Shown here: positions 1 to 14,578 of the stretch, piece after piece
Numbering within the stretch: position 1 is the stretch's first letter
How the letters are laid out: every line of letters starts with the position of its first letter
Assembly (NCBI GenBank): GCA_029856145.1
Contig: JAHQWK010000014.1
Location: forward strand, 1 to 35,303
Direction of reading: 5' to 3'
Length of the DNA stretch: 35,303 nucleotides
Source: Promethearchaeia archaeon
GTDB lineage: Archaea > Asgardarchaeota > Lokiarchaeia > Sigyniarchaeales > SOKP01
Notes under the pieces: generated by a model
The model's database searches: none
The model's input: only the letters and a program-made list of their open reading frames with translations
What the model was told of the DNA's origin: nothing
Program-made: the position numbers and the translations under genes

Positions 1-2
1 GG

Positions 3-1244
3 GATGTAACTGAGGATGAGTTTAAACTAATTTATGAGGTGTCAGAACATTCTGATGTTATCGGCACTTTACGAGGATTTGAGTATGAAGTTCCTATAGA
101 TTTCAAAAAGTTAGTAGAAAAACCATATGGTTTATTTGGAAGAACGGGAATTGGGAAGTCAATCCTGAATAAGATTCTATGTCTTTACATTTTAAAACAT
201 GAAGTATCTCAACTATTACTATTTGATATGCAAGGTGAATATGGTTTAGTTTCACGAGCAGACAAAACAAAGGGACTTGCATTTTATTTCCAACAAAAAA
301 TCCAGCTGTATCGCCTTAGTGAGTTAGATAAAAAGGATAAAGTGCTAGATGGATCAGAACAGTTTTTTATATATAAAGATAATATCTTGTCAGGAGATAT
401 TATTGCAAGCGCTCAGACTTTAAATGAACCTTCTATTAATACTCTTATCCAAATAGAGAACCTTTTAAGGAATGATCAAATCAAATATGATAATTTATTA
501 GCAGCTATACAAAATATAACTTCAGGAGAAGTTCAAACTCATAGAATCAATAATCTCTCTTTAGGAGCGTTGAAGAATAGAATCGTACCTTTTGAGAGAT
601 ATACGTTCTTAAAAGATCGAGGAGAATCTAAACGGGAGGATAGCATCGAACATATGTTTACAAAACTAATGGAAGGTAAATCCATCGTTATTGACTTTGG
701 GAAATATGGCACTAATACTCACTTATATCTATTTGTTGCTAATATGATTACAAGAAGACTGTATCATAAATATTCCCAAAAGGAAGATGAGGGCTCTTTA
801 CCTCCTTTAGTTGTTGTTGTGGAAGAGGCTCATAAATTTTTGAAATCTGGAATAATACAGCACACGATTTTTGACCGAATCGCACGAGAAACGCGAAAAT
901 TTCAGTTAACCATAGCGTTTGTAGACCAAAGACCTTCTCAAATTGATGAAGAAGTTTACTCTCAAATTGCTAACACTTTCGTTATGCACATGATTGATGA
1001 GAAAGATATCAAACGAGTTGTTCAGACGTTACCAGATTCAAAAAAATGGCGTGGGGTTATCTCTGGGCTTCAGAAAAGGCAATGTTTTATACGAGGAGAT
1101 GCTGTTGCGGTGCCCTCTATAGTTGAAATCTTTGACTATAATGATGAAAAAGAATTAAAGAAAAAGTTAGGAATAACAAAACCACTCTCAGAAACTCTTA
1201 AGGCTATAGAAGGATCAGACTTAACTGTTTTAGAAGATGATTAG
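3..1244 (+). CDS. herA: HerA/FtsK-family ATPase (DNA end-resection helicase), 5'-truncated by the window edge
   Basis: Frame is open from nt 3 (DVTEDEFKLIYEV...). Walker A GRTGIGKS, LFDMQGEY, Walker B VVVEEAHKF, arginine-finger region IARETRKF, DQRPSQID. Directly upstream of Mre11/Rad50. Confidence 0.9.
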   Translation, partial: DVTEDEFKLIYEVSEHSDVIGTLRGFEYEVPIDFKKLVEKPYGLFGRTGIGKSILNKILCLYILKHEVSQLLLFDMQGEYGLVSRADKTKGLAFYFQQKIQLYRLSELDKKDKVLDGSEQFFIYKDNILSGDIIASAQTLNEPSINTLIQIENLLRNDQIKYDNLLAAIQNITSGEVQTHRINNLSLGALKNRIVPFERYTFLKDRGESKREDSIEHMFTKLMEGKSIVIDFGKYGTNTHLYLFVANMITRRLYHKYSQKEDEGSLPPLVVVVEEAHKFLKSGIIQHTIFDRIARETRKFQLTIAFVDQRPSQIDEEVYSQIANTFVMHMIDEKDIKRVVQTLPDSKKWRGVISGLQKRQCFIRGDAVAVPSIVEIFDYNDEKELKKKLGITKPLSETLKAIEGSDLTVLEDD

Positions 1245-1284
1245 TATAATTAATTTTTTAAATAAATTGAAAAGGAATTAAATT

Positions 1285-4200
1285 ATGACAAGAATCTTTT
1301 TTATTGGAGATACTCACTTTGGAAAATCCTATCCTTTCAAAAGATTATATGAGCTTAATATTTCAGAAAGAAATTTGGATGTCATAAGTATTTGTGAGAA
1401 AATCGTTAACGCTGCTATTCAAGAAAAAGCAGAATTAGTAATTTTTCTTGGAGATCTCTACGATAGACAGAATATATCTCCAACAGTAAGAAAGATTGTA
1501 AGAGAACATATTTTCATTCCCTTAAATAAAAATGATATGAAAACAATAATTATCGGGGGAAATCATGATTCTATTAGAAATCCTAAAAGAGGAGCAGATA
1601 TTCAAGAATTATCTAATTTTCCGAATGTAGAAGTATATACTGGGCTTACATCAAAAATAATTGAAAAAAATGGTGTTAGAATTGGTATAATTTTTCTACC
1701 TTATATCCATTCTGATGTTCTAGTAAATTTTGCTAAAGAAAAAAATATCCCAATAGATCAAGATCAACATAACTATAGAATCGCTCAGCATATATTTGAA
1801 AATTATATTAAACAATTATGCGAAGGAGACCTTAGGGATTGTGATAAAAAAATTCTTTTAGGTCATTATTATTTAGATGGAGCAAAGATTCGCGAAGTTA
1901 ACAATCCTTCAATGATCTATGGAGAATTTAAGTTTAGCAAACAAATGGTTCAAAAGAATTTTTTCGACCTTGTTATTTTTGGACATGTTCATCTAAAACA
2001 AGTAATGTGGAATGATGAAAGAATTGTAATTCCTGGGGCTATCGATCAAATTGATATAGGAGAAAGAGATACTGATAAATTTTATTGCGTATATGATGTA
2101 GATTCAGATACTTTAGAATATCGAGAGATTGATTGTAGAAAACATGTAAAAACAGAGTTAGAAATTCCGGATGATTGTGAAGATTTAAATACATACTTAT
2201 TAGAGAATCTACCAAATAACGTAGAAATTAAAGATTCTGTATGTAAAGTAATAATTCATTATCCAAGGGGAAAAGAGACCAAAATTGATAAAAATAAGGT
2301 TGAGAAACATCTTAAAAAGTCGTTCTATACAGACATTAATTATAAGGAGAAAACTGAGAAAAAACTAGGAAGTCTAAGAGAAGTAAACTTGGACCCTAAA
2401 AGTCTATATCAAGATTTCCTTTATCAAAAATATAGAAATCATACTTATTATAATGATTTAAAATCAATCGGATTTGATCTTCTTGAAAAAGAATTATCAT
2501 CTGTTGATCTTACAGCAAAAGGCTCAATTTCTATCAAATCCATAGATATGCAGAATTTTAATAAGTATGGAAAGGGACCAAACAAAATAATTTTTGATAA
2601 AGATTTATATGTGATTAAAGGTCCTACAGGATCTGGTAAATCTTCTATTTTAGATGCAATTACGTTTGCGTTATTTAAAAGAAACACTCGAAAGGATGTC
2701 GGTCTTAATTTGGATGAAATTCTTTATCAAAATGGGTATGTTAATTTGGAAATGTTAATAGGGGATAATGTCTTAACGGTAAAAAGAAGTCAAAGATCTC
2801 CTAAATTGGATATAAAACTTGATGATGAGCCTCTCTTTTTAGGATTAAAGGTTCCAGAAAAAGAAAAAAGATTAGAAAGCATCATCGGATATGATTATGA
2901 GGCATTTATATCCTCGTTCTTTATCCGTCAACAAGAACTACAGATTTTCTCCACTTTATCATCTTCAGATCGGCATGAACGGCTTGTAAAATTGTTCAAA
3001 TTAAAAATATTTCAAAATATCTACAAAAAGCTAAAATCTACAATTAATGAGTTTGAGGGAAAACAACAAAAATTAGAAGGAATTATCATAGGAAAAGAGG
3101 AGAGATTTGATGAGTTACCTCAAAAGGAAAAGGATTTGAAATTAAAGGTTGATGAATTAGGAACAAAAGAAAAGGAACGAGATCAACTTTCAAGAGAAGT
3201 TCAAAATATAAGAGAGCAATTAGAAACCCTCCAAGAAGAAGCTACTCAATATGCAAGTACTCAAGAACGGATCAAAGAAATGAATGAAGAAATCGAAAAG
3301 AATAAGAATGACATTATAAATTACGAAAATCAACAAACCGAATTTGCAGAACTCCAAAAAAAATTAAATGAACTAAAGGATTTCAAAGAAGAAAAAATAA
3401 GAATGGAGAAACTAAAAGAATCGATTGAAACAAAGTTACATGAAAAGGAATTGATTGACACAGAAATTAAGAATTATAACAATCTAATAGCACAGACTGA
3501 AAAACAATTTACTACCCAATTGAAGTCGATAAAACATCAAGTTGAAGACAAAGAAGATCGTTTTTCACAGTTAGATGTTGATATGACAAAAGAGGAAGCA
3601 TTTAATATCTTAAAGGAAGATGGAATTTTAACAGAAAGACTTTCTCGACTTCAAAATGTAGAAATTCCTATGGCCAAAGAATATAATGACTCTACGCGTC
3701 TCAATGAATTCACTTCATTAGTTAAAAAAACTCAAAAAGAAGTATCATTACTTCAACCTAAACAAAAGCAGATATCAAAGGATATATTCATTGCTGATGA
3801 GTTAAAAAGCGATCAAAATGTCTTAAAAGATCAAATTATGGATATAGAGAAAAAGAAACAAGAAGAATTCGAGGAATTTTATGAAGAAATTAGGAAATTA
3901 GAAAAGCTCACTCAAGAAAAAAGTCTAAATGAAGATTTCAATGAAAAATTACAATTAGCAAAATCAGAATTAAGCATAATTCAAGAAGAAGAACAAGAGA
4001 AAGAATCATTAGAAGCACAATTGCGTAAATTGAAGGATTATTCACTTTTAATAGAGAAAGTAGAGAAAGATATTACTCAATTGAATAAGAACCTTAAGAC
4101 TTTAGATGATAAATTAATGAAATTAGAGTCGTCATATAAAAAGTATCTAGATATTGTTGAAGTATTTGGTAGACAACAACAAGAGTTACAAGACTTTGAA

Positions 4201-4854
4201 AGTACTATCAAAGGACTCCAAGTAGAAATTGGTTATATTACAAAGGATATAAAGGCTATAATGAAAACTAAAGACGAAGTAAAGAAAATCAAGAAAGAAC
4301 TTAAGGATATCAAAAACAACGTAGAAATCTATACTCTATTACGTAAAGATATATTTCATTTAAATGGTGTTCCTAGGTTTGCTATTGAAAAAATTTTACC
4401 TGAAATATCGATAAGGGCTTCTGAAATCTTAAGTGATCTTACAGATGGAAAGTTTAATCTAATTAGCTTTAAACCTTTAGGGGGCACTAGAGTAGGTTTT
4501 GAGATCTACGTATTTGATGGAGAGCGTGATCGTGAGGCAAGTAGTTTTTCAGGGGGAGAAAAAACACAAATAAATGCAGCTATACGGTTTGCGATTATGG
4601 AAAAAATTTCCGAAATTCCAGATACCACTGGAGCTTTGTTTCGAAAATCTAATACACTATTAATTGATGAGGGGGATCTGGGAACTTTAGATGATGAAAC
4701 TGCTCGGCAACGATTTGTTGATAAGATTTTCGAATTAAAATCAATGTTTAAGAAAATAATCCTTATAACTCATTTAGAAGATGTAGCAGAACAGTTTCCT
4801 AACAGGATTGTTATAGGATGGAATGAGTTAGGTAACTCAAAAATTTATCATTAA
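1285..4854 (+). CDS. Fused Mre11(SbcD)-Rad50(SbcC) nuclease/ATPase
   Basis: aa 1-~410 carry phosphoesterase motifs GDTHFG, GDLYD, GGNHD, LGH, FGHVH. From aa ~413: ISIKSIDMQNF, Walker A GPTGSGKSS (nt 2620), Q-loop FIRQQE, long coiled coil, signature FSGGE, Walker B/D-loop LLIDEGDLGTLD, H-loop ITH. No stop or frameshift between the halves. Confidence 0.93.
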   Translation: MTRIFFIGDTHFGKSYPFKRLYELNISERNLDVISICEKIVNAAIQEKAELVIFLGDLYDRQNISPTVRKIVREHIFIPLNKNDMKTIIIGGNHDSIRNPKRGADIQELSNFPNVEVYTGLTSKIIEKNGVRIGIIFLPYIHSDVLVNFAKEKNIPIDQDQHNYRIAQHIFENYIKQLCEGDLRDCDKKILLGHYYLDGAKIREVNNPSMIYGEFKFSKQMVQKNFFDLVIFGHVHLKQVMWNDERIVIPGAIDQIDIGERDTDKFYCVYDVDSDTLEYREIDCRKHVKTELEIPDDCEDLNTYLLENLPNNVEIKDSVCKVIIHYPRGKETKIDKNKVEKHLKKSFYTDINYKEKTEKKLGSLREVNLDPKSLYQDFLYQKYRNHTYYNDLKSIGFDLLEKELSSVDLTAKGSISIKSIDMQNFNKYGKGPNKIIFDKDLYVIKGPTGSGKSSILDAITFALFKRNTRKDVGLNLDEILYQNGYVNLEMLIGDNVLTVKRSQRSPKLDIKLDDEPLFLGLKVPEKEKRLESIIGYDYEAFISSFFIRQQELQIFSTLSSSDRHERLVKLFKLKIFQNIYKKLKSTINEFEGKQQKLEGIIIGKEERFDELPQKEKDLKLKVDELGTKEKERDQLSREVQNIREQLETLQEEATQYASTQERIKEMNEEIEKNKNDIINYENQQTEFAELQKKLNELKDFKEEKIRMEKLKESIETKLHEKELIDTEIKNYNNLIAQTEKQFTTQLKSIKHQVEDKEDRFSQLDVDMTKEEAFNILKEDGILTERLSRLQNVEIPMAKEYNDSTRLNEFTSLVKKTQKEVSLLQPKQKQISKDIFIADELKSDQNVLKDQIMDIEKKKQEEFEEFYEEIRKLEKLTQEKSLNEDFNEKLQLAKSELSIIQEEEQEKESLEAQLRKLKDYSLLIEKVEKDITQLNKNLKTLDDKLMKLESSYKKYLDIVEVFGRQQQELQDFESTIKGLQVEIGYITKDIKAIMKTKDEVKKIKKELKDIKNNVEIYTLLRKDIFHLNGVPRFAIEKILPEISIRASEILSDLTDGKFNLISFKPLGGTRVGFEIYVFDGERDREASSFSGGEKTQINAAIRFAIMEKISEIPDTTGALFRKSNTLLIDEGDLGTLDDETARQRFVDKIFELKSMFKKIILITHLEDVAEQFPNRIVIGWNELGNSKIYH

Positions 4855-4974
4855 TATTTAAGAAATATAGAAGTGATGAAAGATTTTGAATCAATATAGA
4901 ATAAAAAATATATTTAAAAATATCAATAATAAAATTTCGAAGATATTTATAAAAAAGAAAAAGAGGGTGAAATT

Positions 4975-5949
4975 ATGATAATTGAATTTCGATTTAACTC
5001 CAAGTCGTCAGGACAAAATGTACCTGAAGCTATTAGAATTGCCCTAAAATGTGGAGGTTTTATTGAAGATAGATTTTATAAAATTAAATTTGATGATCCT
5101 CAAGATAAGAATTTAAAGAATTTGTTTGCCTTAGTGGGAAATCTCAAGGGAACTGCTATTATATTGGAAGATGAGGAGCCAGTTATAGCACGTAAATTTT
5201 TTAATGCTGTAAACTGTCCAGAAAAGCTCATCTGCAAAGGAACTTGTCAGCATGTAAAGTTTGGCTATTATGATATCCTAGATTTCCTTGATGCACATTC
5301 AGAAAGCATTGAGAATAATGTATTTTCCACGTCAGAACATAATATAATTAGATACCTGTCGGACTTCTTAGAAGAGGTTGAAGAAAATAGATTTAAAGTG
5401 AATAAGGAATTGTTTCTAAATTACTTTAGACAAGAAACTGATATGGAGAATAAATTCTGTAAAAAATATAATATTCATAAAGCTCAAGAAGCAATACAGA
5501 AGTTACCAGATGAAATAAAACTAATTCCTTATGAAGAATCTCAGGAATATCTTGAGAAATATGAAGAAGAACTTGATATTGAGAGTATGATTCGAGGAAT
5601 TTTAAGGCACAGTGAGATAAGTACAGAACTAACTATACCCGAAATTATAGAATGTTCTAAAACAATAACTTACTTAATAACAGCATATTTCATATCTTTA
5701 GAGAATTCAGATGTTTTAATATCTTCGTTTCCTGAATTAAAACTAATTTCATTTACAAAGCTAATTCTTGATGAAGATTATGAACATATTGATGAATTGG
5801 AAGATGAGCAAATGAAATATATTGTAGCCAAAGAGAAAGAATTCTTTTGTGCATCAAATCCTTTTTCAAAACTATATTTCAGACTTTTTCAAGAACAAGA
5901 TAATACTCTAAAAGACAAACTCGAAATGCTTAAAAAACTGAAAAAATAA
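4975..5949 (+). CDS. Hypothetical protein with a Cys/His cluster (C-x5-C-x3-C-x-H)
   Basis: 324-aa ORF with upstream GAGGGTGA RBS-like motif; NCPEKLICKGTCQH. No family recognised. Confidence 0.7.
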   Translation: MIIEFRFNSKSSGQNVPEAIRIALKCGGFIEDRFYKIKFDDPQDKNLKNLFALVGNLKGTAIILEDEEPVIARKFFNAVNCPEKLICKGTCQHVKFGYYDILDFLDAHSESIENNVFSTSEHNIIRYLSDFLEEVEENRFKVNKELFLNYFRQETDMENKFCKKYNIHKAQEAIQKLPDEIKLIPYEESQEYLEKYEEELDIESMIRGILRHSEISTELTIPEIIECSKTITYLITAYFISLENSDVLISSFPELKLISFTKLILDEDYEHIDELEDEQMKYIVAKEKEFFCASNPFSKLYFRLFQEQDNTLKDKLEMLKKLKK

Positions 5950-5994
5950 AAACAGTGCACGGACAAGATACATAAAAATGTCATAGAGATCAAT

Positions 5995-6408
5995 TCAAGG
6001 TTCTTTATATTGTATATTTATAGAACAAATGTCATATTTAATTTTCATTTTTTTGAATATTTCTTCTAACACTTCTCCCCTAAATGAGTGAAGGCATTCT
6101 GTAAAGTGACAGCGTAGGTTTATATCTTCAAGTGCAGTATCTATTATATCTTTTAATATATCAATATTTTTGATATTGTTTCTATTTAAAATATCATAGT
6201 CATCATCTATATTATAAAGGTCCCAATTCCAAGAAAGTAATAAAATGGTTCTGAAATGTTCTTCTAATGTAACTTCACGATCATTCACATATCTCTTAAA
6301 AATTTCTTCATATTCCAATTTACCTAATAATTTTTCTCTTAATTTTTCTCTCAACTCCTCATATTCTAATAATTTATTAGTTTCAGTTATTTTTTCTTTC
6401 AGATTCAT
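5995..6408 (-). CDS. Hypothetical protein
   Basis: 137-aa ORF with ATG start, GAGGT upstream on the minus strand and Glu/Lys/Ile-rich protein-like composition. Confidence 0.6.
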   Translation of the reverse strand: MNLKEKITETNKLLEYEELREKLREKLLGKLEYEEIFKRYVNDREVTLEEHFRTILLLSWNWDLYNIDDDYDILNRNNIKNIDILKDIIDTALEDINLRCHFTECLHSFRGEVLEEIFKKMKIKYDICSINIQYKEP

Positions 6409-6546
6409 ACTTCATTACCTCTTGATTTATATTTGTCTTTATAATAAAATACTATTTTTAATAAAGGAAAATTCCAAAAGTTCCCTCTATTCTAATCTTG
6501 TCTTAATAATACCCATGTACTTTCTCAGATATAAATATTTTGTTTA

Positions 6547-6614
6547 GAAGATTGGTTAATCCCCACATTAACCAATAGTAATTTGAAGATTAGTTAATCC
6601 CTTCATTAACCAAT
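6547..6614. repeat. Two tandem 30-bp direct repeats, each an inverted repeat (10-bp arm, 6-bp spacer, 10-bp arm); candidate recombinase core sites or operators
   Basis: Copy 1 (6547-6576) GAAG-ATTGGTTAAT-CCCCAC-ATTAACCAAT has perfect arms. Copy 2 (6585-6614) GAAG-ATTAGTTAAT-CCCTTC-ATTAACCAAT has one arm mismatch. Gap 8 bp, period 38 bp. Confidence 0.92.
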
Positions 6615-6669
6615 TTTTCTTTTTATAGAAATGAAATAAATGGTATAAACAAAAAAATTATCAAAGACC

Positions 6670-7083
6670 ATGACAAGAAAAATAAACAGATTGGATATTA
6701 GAGAAGTGTCCTTGAAAATGAGAAGTGAAATTGATAGCATGTCCCGCTCTGATCCACGACTACTCGTATTTCTTGAATTCTTCCATAAGACGTTTCTCAA
6801 ATTAGTGAAAAAGATACAATTGCCTGTTAATACAGATGTACTAAATGCCGTAATAGGTGATTGTATTGAGGACGATGACAGGTTTCCGGATAGAAGCGAA
6901 ATAAATATGACAACGGGAGGATACTCTTTAGGTGAAATTTTCAATTATTTTAATAACTTTCTAAGTTCTACTTCCGACCTCATTCAGTTAATGTATATGT
7001 ATGGATTCAGTCAAGGGATATTAAACAGGATTATGAGGAAATTAAGGATTGAGTATGAAATTCCCCCACCATTTCCTGTGTAA
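6670..7083 (+). CDS. Hypothetical protein, first gene of the atypical block
   Basis: 137-aa ORF with ATG start, apparently helical, ending PPPFPV; co-oriented with the four downstream genes. Confidence 0.65.
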   Translation: MTRKINRLDIREVSLKMRSEIDSMSRSDPRLLVFLEFFHKTFLKLVKKIQLPVNTDVLNAVIGDCIEDDDRFPDRSEINMTTGGYSLGEIFNYFNNFLSSTSDLIQLMYMYGFSQGILNRIMRKLRIEYEIPPPFPV

Positions 7084-7171
7084 ACATTATTACTTTTAAT
7101 TGCCGAGTAATCAAAGTCATTTATTTCATTTCCAATTTTTTCTTTATAAAGAAATAGGTGATTCATCTTGC

Positions 7172-8605
7172 ATGACTCAATCTATTCAAATTAACAAGAA
7201 TAATTACAATGTACTCAGGCAACAATTTATCCAAACTCTAACCGACATAGACCAAATTCAATATAGTGATTTATTTGAGGAGTTTATATCAGTATTTAAT
7301 ACGGTACACTCGAAGATAAGGAGATATACTAAATATCGTAATATTAATCTTGCGTTTCCCCCTATTCTCTATATGTTTTTAAAGGTAAATGCTGTAGTGA
7401 TTAATAGACATATATTCTCCCAAAGTCTTGATTTAGCTTATAATCAACTTGTAAAAGACATGAAAAATTTTATTCCCTTGTATCCTGATTTTAAAAATCG
7501 CGATAAATCTCGGATGATATTTGCAATTATAGAGGATGTTGTAAGCTATTTTGACTTGCACCACCATTTTACTGATAACACTAAATTGCTTTATAACCAT
7601 TTTTATCCCTTACTCCAATTTACCTCAGAAGAACTTAGTGCGGGCGTTATTCTAGTCTTAACATTGACCGTTTCTGGGATTACTTCAATCAATATGGCCC
7701 AAATCTGTGAAAGGATCTGCGTTTCGAGTGGTTCAGTTTCGAATAAAATAAATAAGTATATTATTCCAAAATTAGGCATTCCCAATTTCCAATCCCCCAT
7801 TAATTCAGCATATTTATTAAGAGAAAAATTAGTGTCATTGATGACATTTCACCCAGTGCCTTGCCCTAGTACTTCTCTTACTGCCCCTTTAATTGAGAGA
7901 TCTTCTCTATGGACAAAAAACTTAAATGAACAATCCCTTCTATTGCTGAATATTATAATTGAAAGGATAACTAAGAAACAGAGTAACTATGAGCTACTAT
8001 CAAGATCAGAATTTCTCATTCATAGAAATATAAAAACCATTAGAAAGAATATAGACTATTTCATTAAATTATTGAAGCGAAAAAACATTAAACGAGATCA
8101 TAAAAGAATTGTGGGTGTATCTATTGCTTTCGCTTGCCCCAGAGCCTCGTTAAAAGCTATTTCGAGATTAATAGAGGTTTCAGGGAGTTCTTCTTTGAGT
8201 TGTTTATTCCAGAAAATAAGTCATAAAGGAACCTTTACCCAATATGCCAGTAAATTTCCCTATTTAGATTCCCATTATGCTAAGGAAGTCTTTCGAATAC
8301 TAAAGTATCACATCAAATCTTTAGATCTTGACTACAAATTCTATTGTATTGATTCCAAGCCTAAAACTATTTGCAATAGCATTGAGAAAATATGTGAAAT
8401 CGCAAACGAGATCGGTTTTCGGACACGAGAGCCTTTGATTGTTGCCACCAGCATAGCGCTTACAGACCCAAACTTATCTCAAAATGACATTAGCCAGTTC
8501 ATGACGGACACACTAAATATTCATGTTAATCACACCACATTTAGTCATTGTGTAAGATTATTTAGAGTTGTTAAGTTAGATGATCAAATTGAGAAAAACA
8601 CATAA
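7172..8605 (+). CDS. Divergent TFB/TFIIB-like protein with repeated cyclin-fold/HTH units and no Zn ribbon
   Basis: SEELSAGVILVLTLTVSGITSINMAQICERICVSSGSVSNKINK matches the pattern of the TFB C-terminal cyclin repeat and recognition helix. Similar units at RDHKRIVGVSIAFACPRASLKAISRLIEV and REPLIVATSIALTDPNLSQNDISQ. ATG 7172 is preferred over TTG 7100 because of AGGTGA at 7156-7161. Confidence 0.6.
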   Translation: MTQSIQINKNNYNVLRQQFIQTLTDIDQIQYSDLFEEFISVFNTVHSKIRRYTKYRNINLAFPPILYMFLKVNAVVINRHIFSQSLDLAYNQLVKDMKNFIPLYPDFKNRDKSRMIFAIIEDVVSYFDLHHHFTDNTKLLYNHFYPLLQFTSEELSAGVILVLTLTVSGITSINMAQICERICVSSGSVSNKINKYIIPKLGIPNFQSPINSAYLLREKLVSLMTFHPVPCPSTSLTAPLIERSSLWTKNLNEQSLLLLNIIIERITKKQSNYELLSRSEFLIHRNIKTIRKNIDYFIKLLKRKNIKRDHKRIVGVSIAFACPRASLKAISRLIEVSGSSSLSCLFQKISHKGTFTQYASKFPYLDSHYAKEVFRILKYHIKSLDLDYKFYCIDSKPKTICNSIEKICEIANEIGFRTREPLIVATSIALTDPNLSQNDISQFMTDTLNIHVNHTTFSHCVRLFRVVKLDDQIEKNT

Positions 8606-8654
8606 TTATTTTTACTTGATTTTTTATTATATATCCTATAACTAGAAGACAAAA

Positions 8655-9548
8655 TTGATGGTAATGGCAAAAATAGACGTAATTATTTCAGATCCGTTAT
8701 TTGCTCGGCTTCAGAAGATTTCTACATTACTCGACCTCGAATTTGATGAAGTTCTCGAATTAGTTCTTGTGGACGGAGGATACTATAGATATTGGGTTAA
8801 TATTAATAAGTTCATAGAAGATACATCTGATTTAATAGACTCACCAGATTCCACAGATAATATTTATGAAATTAAGATAGATTTAAGGCAACAATTCCAT
8901 GAACGGTTCGAAATTATAAGTGATATTGATTCCCTTGAGAGTAAGTTCAAAGAGAAATTTAGGCATTTTAAATCCGATATTGAACAGCATAGGACATTTT
9001 TAGATTTCATTGATATTCTCCATTCAGAGCAAATAATAGAAGGAGAAGAAAGAACAGAAGTCAAGGAAGAGCCTTCTGATATTCTGTCAGAGCAAGATAT
9101 TTACAGTATTCCTTCAACTGAAAATTCTTTAGCTCCAGACTCAGAGAAGTTTGTTCTTTCAGTAAAACTTTTGCCTAAGAAATATATACCCATGTTAGTG
9201 TTAATCGCAATGGCAGATTTTTTTGTTATCAAGTTAGCTCAGGTATTTTGGCCCTCATTTACTTTTTTAGATATACTTCATTATAACCCTCTTCAATTTT
9301 TCCCGTATTTCCTTTTGATCATTTTTACATCACTTCTAACAGGAGTCCTTTACCGTCATTATTATAATAGAACTAAGGCGAGTATACCAGTAAGAAGAGA
9401 GAAAAAAGAATTAAGACATTTTATTAAGAAATTCGATTCAAAAAATCCACGTACTTATTCCAAAGACCCGATAATACAGATCCATAATGATATAAAACGA
9501 CTTCAGAAACTTGAAAGGGAGTTTAGAATTAAAAGACAAAATAAATAA
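8655..9548 (+). CDS. Membrane protein with a putative N-terminal ribbon-helix-helix domain
   Basis: N-terminus AKIDVIISDPLFARLQKISTLLDLEFDEVLELVL fits the CopG/RHH strand-helix-helix pattern. Acidic linker, two hydrophobic segments (YIPMLVLIAMADFFVIKLAQVFW; FFPYFLLIIFTSLLTGVLY), basic tail. Confidence 0.6.
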   Translation: MMVMAKIDVIISDPLFARLQKISTLLDLEFDEVLELVLVDGGYYRYWVNINKFIEDTSDLIDSPDSTDNIYEIKIDLRQQFHERFEIISDIDSLESKFKEKFRHFKSDIEQHRTFLDFIDILHSEQIIEGEERTEVKEEPSDILSEQDIYSIPSTENSLAPDSEKFVLSVKLLPKKYIPMLVLIAMADFFVIKLAQVFWPSFTFLDILHYNPLQFFPYFLLIIFTSLLTGVLYRHYYNRTKASIPVRREKKELRHFIKKFDSKNPRTYSKDPIIQIHNDIKRLQKLEREFRIKRQNK

Positions 9549-9554
9549 TGGGAA

Positions 9555-12281
9555 TTGAAGAATATGTTTCAAGCTCAAGAGTTTAAAAAATTCGAGGAAA
9601 TATATCCTCTTGTAGTAGATTTGGACTCCCTCTGGGAAACTTCTCAGTTTAAGAAAATTCCAAAAATATTGGAGAAATTACTTGGTTATGGAAGTGATAT
9701 GAAATATCGTGTTCCAGTATCTTATATCTTTAGTATTGTCGCTGAACATGATAGCTCATTGCTTCCCCATGAAATCATTGAGAAATGTAAAGGATGGCTA
9801 ACTTCTAACAATGAATCTTTACGATTAAATTCTATAGCTATCATCGGTTCCTATCTTGTAAAAGAAAAAGACAACAAAGAAACTTTTGAGCCTACATTTT
9901 CAATTTTTATAAACTTACTGAAAGATCAATCGTCTGATATTAGAAATAATGTTATTTTTTTTCTTGATCAATTATCAAGTGAAATCGATTTTTATCACCA
10001 TCTTAGTTTGTTTTTACAAGTGTTACATATTGAAAGGACCCCACGCAATATTTTATCACTATTTAAATTTATCTCTTCTCGTGATGAGTTGACATTTCAC
10101 GAACTACAAAATTTACGTGAAATATTAATCCAAGTGGTAAAGAAATCTTTTTCTGATTCACAGAAATTTCGTATTAGCCTCAAATCCACCATTTCCAAGT
10201 TTTATCCCGGATTATCACGAATTGATTTTCCCACTATCACCCCTAATGACTTAATATCTGCTTTACAAGAACAAATTATTATCATTCGGCACGAATTTCC
10301 AGCACCTGAGACTCCATTCGAAGAAGAAATCACTAAGCACTTTAATTCGGTTATTAAAAAACATAGACAGACCGATGATAGGGTCAAATACATGATTTCC
10401 TTTTCCCTCAGAATGAAAGACATGTTATTCATTTACACTTTCGAGAAAAGACCTCTTATCAGCTTTTTTAATCAGCCTTATCCTATTAAACCCTCTGAAA
10501 TCGACACTCAATTCTCTTATTTTATTACGGAAGATGAAGAATTGAGAGCAGTGATTTCATATCTCTTAAAATCTAGATTTATCAATGGATATTTTTCCCC
10601 TTTAGGTGTTTTTTATCCTGAACAATATTTAAGATCTTTAGTTTTATCAGAATTAGAAAATACAGGAAAGATTGATGTGAACAGTTTCACCCATCTTCCA
10701 TTTCACATTGTTGAAAGGATACTAAAATCACTTAACAATATCATATTGCTCGAAGCCAAAAAGTTGGGTACATATTATTCTTCCCCCCATATTTATGAGA
10801 CTATAAACGAATTAGCAAAAAGGAATAGTTCTATTAATTTAAGAGAATATCGGAAAAGTTTATCCCCTTCAAGTTATTTTACTTTGATTCAAAACCTTCC
10901 ATCTAATTATTTCTCACAGTACCATGAGACGTCCCATTTTCTTACCAATATTGGTTTAAACAGAATCCTTAATGAGATTACACACTCACAATCAATCGGA
11001 TTTTACAGTATTTCAAAAATGAGCGCCCAATTCAATATCAATATTAAGCTGGTGAAAAAAGTCTTAGACGATATTGTTGATAAACGGAGTGGAATATATA
11101 ATACTTCAGGTGATACATTTTATTATACCCATTTCATCGAGAAAAAAATCAAATCAATTACCAAAGAAAAAGATAAGACTCAAGAGACAATCCAATCGAT
11201 AGCAAATGAATTGAATATTCATCAATTCCACATTGCTCAAACCTTAGAGGCTCATCAACATTCCATTGAAGAAGAGATCAAACAACAGGATAAAATTTCG
11301 ATTAAGAGATATTTGGATATCACGGGATTGAACTATAATGAATTCATGGACTTTATCGACTCATTAGACATTGATTATCTACGTCAAGGGATTTGGATCA
11401 TATTTGATGCAGAAAAAATTGAGAAGGCAAAAGAAGAAATAAAGACCACTCTATTAGACCAAGCTCAACGGATTAACCAAATTATTCTCACTTCACAGAA
11501 TTTTAGGATAACCTACAAGCTTATTTTTAGTATCGCTCAAGAACTCTACAATAATGGTGATTTAGAAGGCATTTTCTATAAGGGTGATAGAAGAACGTTG
11601 TTTTACACTCCCAAAGGCATTATCAACCTCATTAAAAAACATCAAATTCATTTTTCATATTCTGATCTGTTTCCAGGGAAAGAATTATCAGAAAAAGATA
11701 TTGAACTTATCACCAGCCTTATCAAGAAATTACTTACCAATAAAAAATTAAAAGGAGAATTCGATGAAGAAGGACGCAAATTCTCCAGCTATGATACGAT
11801 TTATGCCCGGAATACTGAAGACTTAATACGCCGATTTAAAGATATAATTTCAGAATATTTTAAAAAATTTGAAAAAACACACCTAGAAATTAAAAAGATT
11901 CTACTAAAGGAAGAAGAAGTTATTCGCCCTCAAATTGTTTCGACCATCACAAAAATTATTAACAACATCCAATCATATTTCATGTTTTGGGGCAGTGAGA
12001 TAGACAAAAATTTGTACAAAGCCAATAAAGTCCTCAATAAAATATACCCCAAACCAGAAAAAAAGGAAGATCAGAAGAACCAGAAAAAATTTAAACTCCA
12101 GGATGAACCTCTAATTCAAGAGCTATTAACAATATTTGACGGATGGACGAGCTTGTTTAATACTCTGGAGCAAAAATTTAAAAGTGTAATATTCCACCAA
12201 AAACAGCTGAAACGTGAGCCAAATAGTCTTGAGAGCAAACGAGCATTATATGAACTATTAAATGAATTAAGGATGAATTAG
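9555..12281 (+). CDS. Large HEAT-repeat plus tandem winged-helix (UFL1/PCI-like) protein
   Basis: HEAT-like WLTSNNESLRLNSIAIIG and NLLKDQSSDIRNNVIFFL. Repeated wing motifs INGYFSPLGVFYP, SGIYNTSGDTFYY, LEGIFYKGDRRTLFYT, LKGEFDEEGRKF. Helical C-terminus. Confidence 0.6.
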   Translation: MKNMFQAQEFKKFEEIYPLVVDLDSLWETSQFKKIPKILEKLLGYGSDMKYRVPVSYIFSIVAEHDSSLLPHEIIEKCKGWLTSNNESLRLNSIAIIGSYLVKEKDNKETFEPTFSIFINLLKDQSSDIRNNVIFFLDQLSSEIDFYHHLSLFLQVLHIERTPRNILSLFKFISSRDELTFHELQNLREILIQVVKKSFSDSQKFRISLKSTISKFYPGLSRIDFPTITPNDLISALQEQIIIIRHEFPAPETPFEEEITKHFNSVIKKHRQTDDRVKYMISFSLRMKDMLFIYTFEKRPLISFFNQPYPIKPSEIDTQFSYFITEDEELRAVISYLLKSRFINGYFSPLGVFYPEQYLRSLVLSELENTGKIDVNSFTHLPFHIVERILKSLNNIILLEAKKLGTYYSSPHIYETINELAKRNSSINLREYRKSLSPSSYFTLIQNLPSNYFSQYHETSHFLTNIGLNRILNEITHSQSIGFYSISKMSAQFNINIKLVKKVLDDIVDKRSGIYNTSGDTFYYTHFIEKKIKSITKEKDKTQETIQSIANELNIHQFHIAQTLEAHQHSIEEEIKQQDKISIKRYLDITGLNYNEFMDFIDSLDIDYLRQGIWIIFDAEKIEKAKEEIKTTLLDQAQRINQIILTSQNFRITYKLIFSIAQELYNNGDLEGIFYKGDRRTLFYTPKGIINLIKKHQIHFSYSDLFPGKELSEKDIELITSLIKKLLTNKKLKGEFDEEGRKFSSYDTIYARNTEDLIRRFKDIISEYFKKFEKTHLEIKKILLKEEEVIRPQIVSTITKIINNIQSYFMFWGSEIDKNLYKANKVLNKIYPKPEKKEDQKNQKKFKLQDEPLIQELLTIFDGWTSLFNTLEQKFKSVIFHQKQLKREPNSLESKRALYELLNELRMN

Positions 12282-12500
12282 AAATTTATTAATTCACCTT
12301 TAGTTTGATATTATTATATTATATTTTTTCTATTTAAGGGAAAAATTTCTTTTTCTATAGTTGAAATTATTAATCTTTTTACCTCTATTCTTATAAAATT
12401 AGAGATTTCTTCTTAAAATCCTAGAATTAAAGATTTTTTCTTTAAATAATCTCAAAAGATAGATAGTCCAACTCAATATAAATTATAAGAAGGTAGTAAT

Positions 12501-14363
12501 GTGGCTTCCGATAAAGATTTTGCAGTAGACAGGAACCCAACTCAGGACCCTCGAATAAATCCTGTAAGAGAGACTGAATCGAAAAGGAGAGAGCGTTATA
12601 TACAGACTAAATTCCGAGAAGATGTAAGACATATTACAAGGTTTTTACATACTGATATCACTAAATTTCGATTAGGAAACCCAATTATTAAGGAATTTAT
12701 GTGGAATTTCCAAGCTACATTTAATACCACGCATCTTCAATCTATCTCATATTTTCTTACCACAATAGGTTTTAAAGAAAAAGTGGAGGAAAATATGCCG
12801 GGTTTAACTGTGTTTCGCTATCCTCTCCCCATTGAAGGGCAATCCATCCATGTAAAAATTACGGAGCAAACAAGTAGAATTATAATCCATGCTCATATGG
12901 ACAAAAAGATACACACAGAACATGAACATAATGATTTTACCACATATCTTTTATCTGAATTAGGGAAATTCTTGCAAAATATTTATGAACCTTTATTTAT
13001 GAGACGTCAGATGAAGCTAACCCCTCAGTGGTTAAGGGACACAGAGATTCAAGAACCCCTAAAAGAACAAATTAACGCTGAAATCACCTCAGATACTGAT
13101 GTTCAGCTTATCAAAAAAATTAAATCTCAGTTTACACAGAATATTCCTGAGATTAAAGCCAAGTGTTTAGGTGAGTCAATGTCAAGAAATAGATTAATCC
13201 CAACAGGGAGGATACGCGAGATAGCATATCAACTTGTTACCTCTAATTTAGAGCAGGATGAAATCCAAAATTTGAGACATGTTGAATTGAATTTAAAGAT
13301 TTTTCTTGCAGACAAAATTGATATAATATATTCTGATTTAAAGAAGATCTATATGCAAGAAAAGAATAAGAACCCCCCACCCCCTCGTAGGCAGTTTTTT
13401 CCTAAAGAATACGTTAAAAGAAGCGAAATACTAAAGGCATCCACACCAGAAGTACCAGCCCCTCTACCTCAAAAACTTGACAAGATACCAAAAGAAGTTC
13501 TAACCGAAAAAATAGTAGAGAAAAGACAAATTACCCCTGAAAGCGTTTTAGAAAGAGCTGAAGAAATAGTAGAACCTCAGGGTTGGGGCTATTATGACGA
13601 GGAGGAGGAATTTAGAGAATATATAGATTCTGAAGTTACTGAAAGTATATTGATAGAGGATTCACTTACTCCTCGTAGTATACAAGAACATCCTAACATG
13701 ATTAGTAGCAGACCTTCCGAGATGGAGCAATCTTTGGCCCAACAGCCTCAGAGCGTGAGAGTGTCGTCTGTTCTGGAAGAAATTATTCATAATGAATTTG
13801 AAAAGATCTATCAGAAAGCTATAAGAGATATGGATTATCAAGTATTATTAATTGATATCATAAGAATAATACCCCCAAGGGTTAACGCTCGAATTGACCA
13901 GTATAACAATATTACGGCTCAGACATACAGATCCCAATTTGAGTATTATATGAAAAAACAATTTAATACAGATCTTACAGAGCTCCAGAATGTTGTAAGC
14001 TCTGAACGTAAAAGACTAAGAAAAAGAGCTTCTATAATCTCTCCAATTAGGAAAGTAGCGATCTCCTTCTTGTGGTGTTTATGCACAGTTGCTGCTTTTT
14101 ATTTCTTATTTTATCTCCTACATATCCAGTGGCTTCCCTATGAGGATCTTTACCGATTTTTCCCAATACAATGCACTCTATTTCTATTATGTGCATTTTT
14201 ATATGGGACAGATCTATGTACACTTATTATAGTGGGATATAGGGCAATTAGAGGGCGTGAATTAACAAAAACAGAAGAGGGGTTAGGTGCGGTAGGAACA
14301 TTATTTTGTATTAGTAGTATCGCAGTTATTTGCAACTTTTGCTTCTTGTTTTTTCTGCTATAA
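12501..14363 (+). CDS. Hypothetical membrane protein with a large soluble N-terminal region and about three C-terminal TM helices
   Basis: 620-aa ORF, GTG start after AGAAGGT. His cluster IHVK...HAHMDKKIHTEHEH, Pro/Glu-rich low-complexity middle, Cys-rich hydrophobic C-terminal helices. Confidence 0.7.
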   Translation: MASDKDFAVDRNPTQDPRINPVRETESKRRERYIQTKFREDVRHITRFLHTDITKFRLGNPIIKEFMWNFQATFNTTHLQSISYFLTTIGFKEKVEENMPGLTVFRYPLPIEGQSIHVKITEQTSRIIIHAHMDKKIHTEHEHNDFTTYLLSELGKFLQNIYEPLFMRRQMKLTPQWLRDTEIQEPLKEQINAEITSDTDVQLIKKIKSQFTQNIPEIKAKCLGESMSRNRLIPTGRIREIAYQLVTSNLEQDEIQNLRHVELNLKIFLADKIDIIYSDLKKIYMQEKNKNPPPPRRQFFPKEYVKRSEILKASTPEVPAPLPQKLDKIPKEVLTEKIVEKRQITPESVLERAEEIVEPQGWGYYDEEEEFREYIDSEVTESILIEDSLTPRSIQEHPNMISSRPSEMEQSLAQQPQSVRVSSVLEEIIHNEFEKIYQKAIRDMDYQVLLIDIIRIIPPRVNARIDQYNNITAQTYRSQFEYYMKKQFNTDLTELQNVVSSERKRLRKRASIISPIRKVAISFLWCLCTVAAFYFLFYLLHIQWLPYEDLYRFFPIQCTLFLLCAFLYGTDLCTLIIVGYRAIRGRELTKTEEGLGAVGTLFCISSIAVICNFCFLFFLL

Positions 14364-14578
14364 CTACTTTTTCCTTAAGATGACTTTGTACTTTTTATGT
14401 CATTTTATAAAGATTTAATACAAACAAGAATTTGTTTTAATTCAGTCCTTGATGTATCTCTAGCTGAATTGAATGATTTAAGCATTCTTGACATTTCCTC
14501 ACTCAATTCATTAAGATCTATATAATTATTTTTCTCAATTATCTTCAATTTAAAATATTATTCTTATAATTATTTCAT

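Follow-up and report, generated by a model that had tools for sequence, protein, structure and literature searches.

Contig JAHQWK010000014.1 of a Promethearchaeia archaeon (Lokiarchaeia, Sigyniarchaeales, SOKP01; assembly GCA_029856145.1), analysed over its full length of 35,303 nucleotides and referred to below as the window, encodes an Mre11 nuclease and a Rad50 ATP-binding cassette (ABC) ATPase in a single polypeptide of 1189 amino acids (aa). That both enzymes are intact in one chain is secure. The Rad50 part has no zinc hook, and the gene belongs to an accessory operon with herA and a nurA-like gene. The reading favoured here, at roughly even odds (probability about 0.5), is that the targets of this hook-less single-chain Mre11-Rad50 (MR) are foreign or linear DNA, with a prokaryotic Argonaute (pAgo) as its probable partner in some lineages.

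Domain organization of the fusion protein

The window is the entire contig C14 of an assembly of 3.55 Mb (genome G000; 30% GC, 32 contigs). The fusion gene and the parts of its product are located as follows:

1285-4854, plus strand: mre11::rad50 fusion gene, 1189 aa, no internal stop
1285-2130, plus strand: Mre11 phosphoesterase domain, residues 1-282 (invariant motifs; Foldseek TM-scores of 0.62-0.77 to SbcD/Mre11 chains)
2143-2349, plus strand: Mre11 capping domain, residues 287-355 (strands in the AlphaFold2 (AF2) model; aligns with the nuclease and capping structures 7DOG, 4LTY and 3AV0)
2395-2499, plus strand: Mre11 C-terminal helix-loop-helix, residues 371-405, the expected Rad50-binding segment (AF2 helices 371-383 and 389-405)
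2500-2526, plus strand: junction or linker, residues 406-414, about 9 residues (alignment boundaries of split relatives; no stop in six loci)
2527-3003, plus strand: Rad50 N-terminal ATPase lobe, residues 415-573, with Walker A and Q-loop (invariant residues; phmmer)
3004-3567, plus strand: ascending coiled-coil arm, residues 574-761 (long AF2 helices)
3568-3777, plus strand: apex element in the place of the zinc hook, residues 762-831, helices 769-799 and 803-828 (alignment conservation; AF2)
3778-4353, plus strand: descending coiled-coil arm, residues 832-1023 (AF2)
4354-4854, plus strand: Rad50 C-terminal ATPase lobe, residues 1024-1189, with signature, Walker B, D-loop and H-loop, stop codon included (invariant residues)

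Pfam assigns Metallophos to residues 3-236 (57.5 bits, cut-off 21.5) and AAA_23/SMC_N to residues 417-652, and the NCBIfam matches are SbcD (3-266) and Rad50/SbcC (416-806, 1040-1168). The initial annotation had read the gene as one uninterrupted frame next to herA, carrying all Mre11 motifs and the Walker A, Q-loop, signature, Walker B, D-loop and H-loop of Rad50; each of these points is borne out, and the motif residues are invariant in an alignment of 28 full-length fusion homologues, on which all statements of invariance in this text rest. The Mre11 part possesses the calcineurin-type phosphoesterase motifs I-VI with their metal-binding D, H and N residues, the invariant positions being D9, H11, D57, N93, H94, H194, H234 and H236. 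In the Rad50 part G446, T448, G449, G451, K452, S453 and Q549 are invariant in the N-terminal lobe, and S1089, G1090, G1091, E1092, D1128, E1129, D1131, D1136 and H1163 in the C-terminal lobe. As had also been stated, no methionine precedes the first Rad50 strand: after M241 the next is M422, inside that strand.

The nearest solved proteins by sequence are the Rad50 heads of M. jannaschii (N-terminal lobe, phmmer against the PDB, E 9e-18) and T. maritima (C-terminal lobe, 3QF7, E 4e-13) and the SbcD of S. aureus. The AF2 model of the full chain has a mean predicted local distance difference test (pLDDT) of 77, contains a long antiparallel coiled coil of about 190 residues per arm between the two halves of the Rad50 head, and finds Mre11-Rad50/SbcCD structures as its top PDB matches in Foldseek. 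The helix-loop-helix 371-405, modelled with a pLDDT of about 90, marks the end of the alignment with a split Mre11 from Heimdallarchaeota and is expected to be the segment by which Mre11 binds Rad50. The fusion scores below the NCBIfam equivalog cut-offs for Rad50/SbcC (sbcc 130.9 bits, cut-off 478.5; PRK03918 121.5 bits, cut-off 700), and from its sequence the Rad50 part is a diverged branch of the Rad50/SbcC superfamily.

Conservation of the fused frame

About 36 clusters of full-length fusion homologues (1186-1200 aa, 48-74% identity) were recovered in a search of 5.8 billion proteins, from NCBI, JGI, ENA and Logan assemblies; those with a name are Promethearchaeota or Lokiarchaeota. The stop and restart that the initial annotation had envisaged in close relatives is not seen: the junction DNA is in frame and stop-free in six diverged loci (48-72% protein identity). 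Short database matches of more than 50% identity are fragments at contig ends, and among complete stand-alone Mre11 proteins the closest reaches no more than 37-38% identity.

A sequencing or assembly error that erased the stop between separate mre11 and rad50 genes would find some encouragement in one split relative, where a single in-frame TGA parts the two genes and one base change would fuse them. It is contradicted by the same full-length frame in about 36 independent clusters down to 48% identity, by the open junction in six loci, and by the lack of any complete split Mre11 of more than 40% identity in the database searched. From the clusters and the open junctions it follows that a lost stop or assembly error is excluded, and the chance of an artefact is negligible. 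Sequence comparison thus shows the fusion to be conserved and fixed in one Lokiarchaeial clade.

A conserved helical apex in place of the zinc hook

The zinc hook of Rad50 is regarded as a hallmark essential to Mre11-Rad50 function. The Rad50 part had initially been called complete, but no cysteine is present after residue 320 and hence there is no CxxC zinc hook; CxxC is likewise absent from all fused and split (about 784 aa) members (P0001-P0054). Hook presence was judged by direct CxxC counts. The Pfam model Rad50_zn_hook (PF04423) overlooked even the other Rad50 of the same genome (704 aa, contig C19), which possesses CSLC at position 363, mid-chain, so that negatives of this model are uninformative.

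The segment at the hook position contains the invariant residues A772, F773, G780, E784, R785, R788, E793, P795, D802, F809 and T816. Its core pattern AF..L...G.L.ER..R is kept in the split relatives, which are 15-23% identical across the segment, and also in a divergent fused form from genome G130. Fused or split, the aligned members of the whole clade are hook-less and share this conserved helical apex. Modelled in isolation with 36 sequences, the apex forms a four-helix tip with a pLDDT of 94.7; a Foldseek search of this model against the PDB yielded only generic coiled coils (best E 0.025) and no specific fold match.

Two copies of residues 705-880 are predicted to form a homodimer with an ipSAE of 0.59 (best of three controls 0.01). 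Of 30 proteins solved as same-chain pairs 20 reached this mark, of 23 solved as a single chain 1. Contact agreement is at least 92% and partner pLDDT at least 78 in these runs, and the predicted symmetric interface consists of the conserved residues 773-805. The models support self-association of the apex through this stretch, and the coiled coils are probably joined by a metal-free helical tip.

Operon structure, split relatives and phylogeny

The fusion follows herA in the window:

3-1244, plus strand: herA, C-terminal 413 aa, first ~143 aa lost at the contig start (DUF87, E 1e-17)

This HerA aligns at 76% identity with residues 144-551 of its counterpart in a related operon (L016). The order nurA-like, herA, mre11::rad50, with the fusion last, occurs in the loci of 12 relatives, which are all those with sufficient flanking sequence. 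The genes 5' of the fusion in relatives are a nurA-like gene of 351-361 aa and then herA of 544-607 aa. The 351-361-aa family barely reaches the Pfam NurA model and stays below its threshold; its profile aligns with the genome's own NurA in hhalign with a probability of 96.5% (E 7e-10), covering the region of the PGYP.GL motif, and on this profile match the family is assigned to NurA.

The next-nearest proteins are split pairs (mre11 402-412 aa, rad50 781-790 aa) beside nurA-like and herA genes in other Asgard lineages, one named Heimdallarchaeota and the others Hodarchaeales. The Heimdallarchaeota locus (L023) has the gene order of the fused operon, nurA-herA-mre11-rad50, and at 7998-8003 the TGA of mre11 is followed at once by an in-frame TTG start of rad50. 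Its Mre11 corresponds over the full length to fusion residues 1-408; the alignment of its Rad50 starts with residue 9 opposite fusion residue 420. Given these alignments and the single in-frame TGA, the fused and split forms differ by essentially one stop codon. Read-through of this TGA would yield a fused protein in L023 as well.

In a tree of the head domains the hook-less clade, fused and split, is monophyletic with respect to hook-bearing outgroups (support 97/91). All 14 Lokiarchaeial fusions fall into a single clade (100/100) that is sister to the split Asgard forms. Another, divergent fused lineage (about 27-30% identity; G130, P0138/P0142/P0144) is placed with weak support (88/70) beside the split forms. 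Two changes of the fusion state are needed on this tree, with which a single origin is still compatible, as are both directions of change, fusion and fission. Distant fused proteins of bacteria are 22-24% identical; a CPxC hook is retained in some of them, and one is encoded in a neighbourhood of sortase, pilin and methylase genes. Neither the 50,697 phage records nor the 72,556 plasmid records searched contain a close relative of the fusion. Because its nearest relatives are split Asgard genes and no close phage or plasmid relative exists in these records, the Asgard fusion appears to have arisen independently.

Some loci show further peculiarities. Directly 3' of the fusion in L020 (13610-13957) lies a 115-aa ORF with weak SbcC_Walker_B/SMC_N similarity, resembling a remnant of a Rad50 C-lobe. 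In L043 (3274-8238) a 1654-aa protein with SBBP beta-propeller repeats is inserted between nurA and herA, and SBBP-related fragments flank the fusion operons of genome G182 (L044 5516-7843; L045 14881-15552).

The gene on the 3' side of the fusion in the window recurs beside it:

4975-5949, plus strand: 324-aa gene without assigned function (homologues next to both fusion copies of G182)

These homologues (L044 8085-9038; L045 7324-8277) are 58% and 40% identical. The 324-aa gene has no match in Pfam, NCBIfam, PADLOC or Atlas, and its product may be an accessory component of the fusion system.

Distribution and the resident unfused cluster

The same genome possesses a second, unfused set, the existence of which had been raised with the initial annotation: contig C19 encodes nurA (385 aa), herA (526 aa), mre11 (429 aa) and rad50 (704 aa, hook present) beside uvrD. 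Contig C9 contains a further NurA-domain ORF (486 aa, 63.6 bits) and a third Mre11/SbcD-like ORF (400 aa), both outside the two clusters; the coordinates given for them are 427953-428834 and 303576-303848.

Nor is the fusion the standard form of its lineage. Among 54 genomes of the genus searched with a Rad50 model, a Rad50 of about 695-720 aa occurs in 52 and one of about 906 aa in three, and the fusion of about 1190 aa occurs in three only (G000, G182 and G213), of which G182 has two diverged copies. The fused frame is present in 6 of the 135 genomes of the family and in two more of the order, in a survey of 400 genomes of the phylum. Many of the surveyed genomes are incomplete metagenome-assembled genomes, which makes absences soft, but the contrast with the near-universal short Rad50 is still large. 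These counts show the fusion operon to be an extra, rare and patchy copy beside a hook-bearing Rad50 cluster, and the fused copies of Lokiarchaeia give the impression of an additional set that was secondarily acquired or retained.

A strain-specific island between rpl22 and rps3

The operon lies in a region that is lacking in the closest relatives:

window 1-14570, no strand: window share of the strain-specific island bearing the operon (synteny with four relatives begins at ~14569)
contig C8 32330-42463 (L062 3331-13464), minus strand: giant ORF of at least 3320 aa, running to the contig end (no Pfam hit)

Of the window, the four closest genomes (71-88% DNA identity) share only the part to the right of about position 14569, which lies just beyond the stop of rpl22. 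The closest relatives (including G206, G181 and G179) possess rps3 directly after rpl22; here rps3 and the remaining ribosomal operon are located on contig C8, which continues up to its end with a 153-aa ORF and the giant ORF. The island is thus composed of window positions 1-14570, an unassembled gap and 31.7-42.5 kb of C8 (31700-42463; L062 2700-13464), measures at least 25 kb and splits rpl22 from rps3. That two independent contigs lose synteny at one intergenic point argues against chance chimeras. The non-syntenic block of the window includes, at 6670-14363, five co-oriented ORFs (137, 501, 297, 908 and 620 aa) without a Pfam hit at E<=0.001.

A mobile element or virus integrated at this place, with the operon serving its own replication or recombination in the manner of T4 gp46/47 and the viral fusions, would account for the inserted block of at least 25 kb and its richness in genes without Pfam hits, would agree with the fusions known from viruses, plasmids and archaeal viruses, and could explain why the nurA-herA-fusion cassette is inverted between shared flanks in two related genomes (L015 7248-13564, L041 6883-13181; F420 ligase, NosD and gyrase on one side, Robl and a response regulator on the other). 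It is nevertheless quite improbable: genes for an integrase, capsid, terminase or replication initiator were not seen beside any copy, the phage and plasmid records hold no close relative, and the flanks vary among loci while the three-gene core stays constant. A comparison of the island borders (C14 at about 14.3-14.6 kb, C8 at about 31.6-32.1 kb) likewise gave no direct repeat longer than 10 nucleotides.

The rps3 gene adjoining the island (C8 30864-31682; L062 1865-2683, minus strand) contains an in-frame TGA within an insert of about 33 nucleotides that the orthologue of G206 does not have (…ELEN*VLIKISSLLPQIEV… here, …GLEMPQIEV… in G206). An RNA fold shows a stem with symmetric loops, with a z of only -1.6; a mini-intron, a recoding site and an assembly error are all conceivable here.

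Gene neighbourhoods in relatives

Neighbouring genes were called with PADLOC and Pfam. In four lineages (L016/L017, L020/L021, the contig of P0017, and L042) a divergent CARF/Csa3-like gene is followed by a long pAgo, nurA, herA and the fusion, these four genes being co-oriented with short gaps. The pAgo (PADLOC 593 bits; 781-788 aa) and the CARF/Csa3-like gene (HFX_2341_N) are located at L016 3815-7122, L020 3795-7127 and L042 3819-7147, and the nearest solved Argonautes are 9IAD and that of Aquifex (1YVU). The pAgos of the four lineages are only 54-55% identical to each other, and the linkage is therefore old within the subclade.

Further defence genes also occur beside the operon. An OLD/GajA-like nuclease lies directly 3' of the fusion in two loci and SIR2-HerA pairs adjoin the operon in two; one locus contains a type IIG methylase-nuclease (restriction-modification), NOV_C and a NERD-type helicase, and one an HNH/PtuB-like gene.

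The proteins themselves do not correspond to a catalogued defence system: neither the fusion nor its HerA has a full-length match to known anti-phage system components in PADLOC 2.0. Matches of the fusion are partial, to the heads of LmuB, mad3 and PtuA, and do not exceed 54 bits. The HerA of the window reaches about 111 bits with the PADLOC HerA models, compared with 561 bits for a true SIR2-HerA partner.

Comparison with known systems

The initial annotation knew the fused form from giant viruses (Mimiviridae); its occurrence is wider. In 2011 Yoshida, Claverie & Ogata (PMC3175470) listed Mre11/Rad50 (SbcD/SbcC) fusions of Mimivirus (R555) and 12 others; eukaryotes, bacteria, viruses and plasmids are represented there, archaea are not. 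Viral fusions, including those of archaeal viruses, are the subject of a 2026 preprint (bioRxiv 10.64898/2026.07.21.739742). A 2026 review of archaeal NurA treats Asgard homologues without mention of a fusion. Literature searches yielded no description of an Asgard fusion, of a hook-less Rad50 clade or of a pAgo-HerA-NurA linkage. New are the hook-less apex with its predicted dimer, the split sister clade and its in-frame stop, the hook-bearing cluster resident in the same genome, the counts on distribution, the rpl22/rps3 island and the defence and pAgo neighbourhood.

The 2011 and viral fusions share with the Asgard protein the succession of Mre11 nuclease, cap and helix-loop-helix at the N-terminus and a coiled-coil Rad50 ABC ATPase behind it, as well as a sporadic distribution. 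In contrast to it, those of 2011 are not archaeal-chromosomal, whereas the Asgard fusion is closest to split Asgard genes. Distant bacterial fusions occur in contexts of Gram-positive type and some carry CPxC, whereas the Asgard fusion is tied to NurA-HerA and is hook-less. Common descent with the viral, plasmid and bacterial fusions is not supported, the Lokiarchaeial clade being sister to the split Asgard forms; the Asgard fusion is independent of the 2011 set, the sequences of which are not included in the tree.

The canonical archaeal nurA-herA-mre11-rad50 operon (Sulfolobus, Pyrococcus, the copy on C19) has the same four activities, the same catalytic motifs and the gene order of the split Heimdallarchaeota relative. 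The fusion operon differs in its single MR polypeptide, the lack of CxxC, the helical apex and a NurA below the Pfam threshold; the canonical operon is a core gene set, while the fusion operon is accessory, island-borne and patchy. E. coli SbcCD and the Mre11-Rad50 of T. maritima and M. jannaschii (6S85, 7YZO, 3QG5, 3AV0, 5DNY) are the best structural and sequence matches to both halves, and an ATP-driven clamp-and-cut activity on DNA ends is likely to be common to them and the fusion. Unlike it, they consist of two subunits with a zinc-hook apex, and identity is only 13-18%. Lamassu LmuB, PARIS AriA, Gabija GajA and MADS mad3/mad8 are also Rad50-like coiled-coil ABC ATPases of defence islands, and weak PADLOC matches exist (LmuB 54 bits and mad3 45 bits for the fusion, mad8 for HerA). 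These systems have no Mre11 nuclease, no NurA-HerA and other effectors, and the matches are confined to a portion of the ATPase head and coiled coil; the fusion is not a member of any of them.

Proposed function

Two chains would form the usual M2R2-type head, with an Mre11 dimer and ATP-engaged Rad50 heads, and the tips of the coiled coils would be joined without metal by the conserved helix 773-805. This machine would recognise DNA ends and nick or open them, and the opened ends would be passed to the NurA-HerA nuclease-translocase for processive degradation. The most likely task is to degrade or process the ends of invading linear or replicating foreign DNA, because the operon is dispensable, island-borne and repeatedly flanked by defence genes; on the same grounds a role against foreign DNA is likely and routine chromosome repair less likely. 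Where a co-oriented pAgo lies directly 5', the fusion may act together with it. The initial annotation had named two options, a variant resection machine and a module against mobile genetic elements. Accessory status, island and defence neighbours lean towards the second without settling the matter.

Several observations weigh against this reading, or favour a second, redundant or specialised machine for the resection of chromosomal double-strand breaks, a paralogous NurA-HerA-MR that takes no part in defence and in which the fusion merely fixes a 1:1 stoichiometry. Every repair-type motif and the four-gene logic are kept, and the arm length of about 190 aa resembles that of the genome's own 704-aa Rad50. 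In one family (f16) 19 of 22 genomes carry a split hook-less sister operon, and three of the five examined for it, a closed genome among them, have no other Rad50 match at E<=1e-10; the operon looks like the main or only MR of this family. From this prevalence and these sole-Rad50 genomes, the ancestral job of the hook-less clade was probably ordinary end resection or repair. The flanks of L015 and L041 are housekeeping genes (gyrAB, HhH-GPD glycosylase, F420 ligase). No Piwi gene was found in the window's own genome, tblastn did not recover nurA and the 5' end of herA of the window operon from the assembly, and no PADLOC model covers the fusion (best LmuB, 54 bits, partial). The apex dimer is a prediction, and coiled-coil or helical fragments may pair generically. 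The defence role, finally, is argued from guilt by association, which is a weak ground. The repair paralogue is a serious contender, if a less probable one. It fits poorly with the presence of the fusion in only three of 54 genomes of the genus, set against near-universal Rad50s of about 700 aa, with its duplication in one genome, with its position in a strain-specific island, and with the pAgo, OLD, SIR2-HerA and restriction genes that surround it in most informative loci.

A closer partnership can be imagined for the CARF/pAgo subclade, in which MR and NurA-HerA might be the dedicated DNA-end processing partner of the pAgo, making guide DNAs from invader ends or destroying targets cut by the pAgo. 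This extension of the foreign-DNA role is doubtful. Cooperation of RecBCD with pAgo is seen in bacteria; if the partnership is true, it would be the archaeal counterpart and a new type of Argonaute-associated effector module.

Implications

A natural single-chain MR with fixed 1:1 stoichiometry would be convenient for structural and single-molecule work, and the split and fused pair illustrates that one stop codon can suffice for the origin of a gene fusion. The hook-less Asgard clade, with another conserved apex, is a natural test of the purpose of the zinc hook, and the metal-free apex helix, if true, would be a new mode of joining Rad50 coiled coils. Bacterial Lamassu descends from Rad50. 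The accessory NurA-HerA-MR near pAgo, OLD, SIR2-HerA and restriction genes suggests a parallel in which the end-resection machinery of archaea has been recruited to conflicts with mobile elements.

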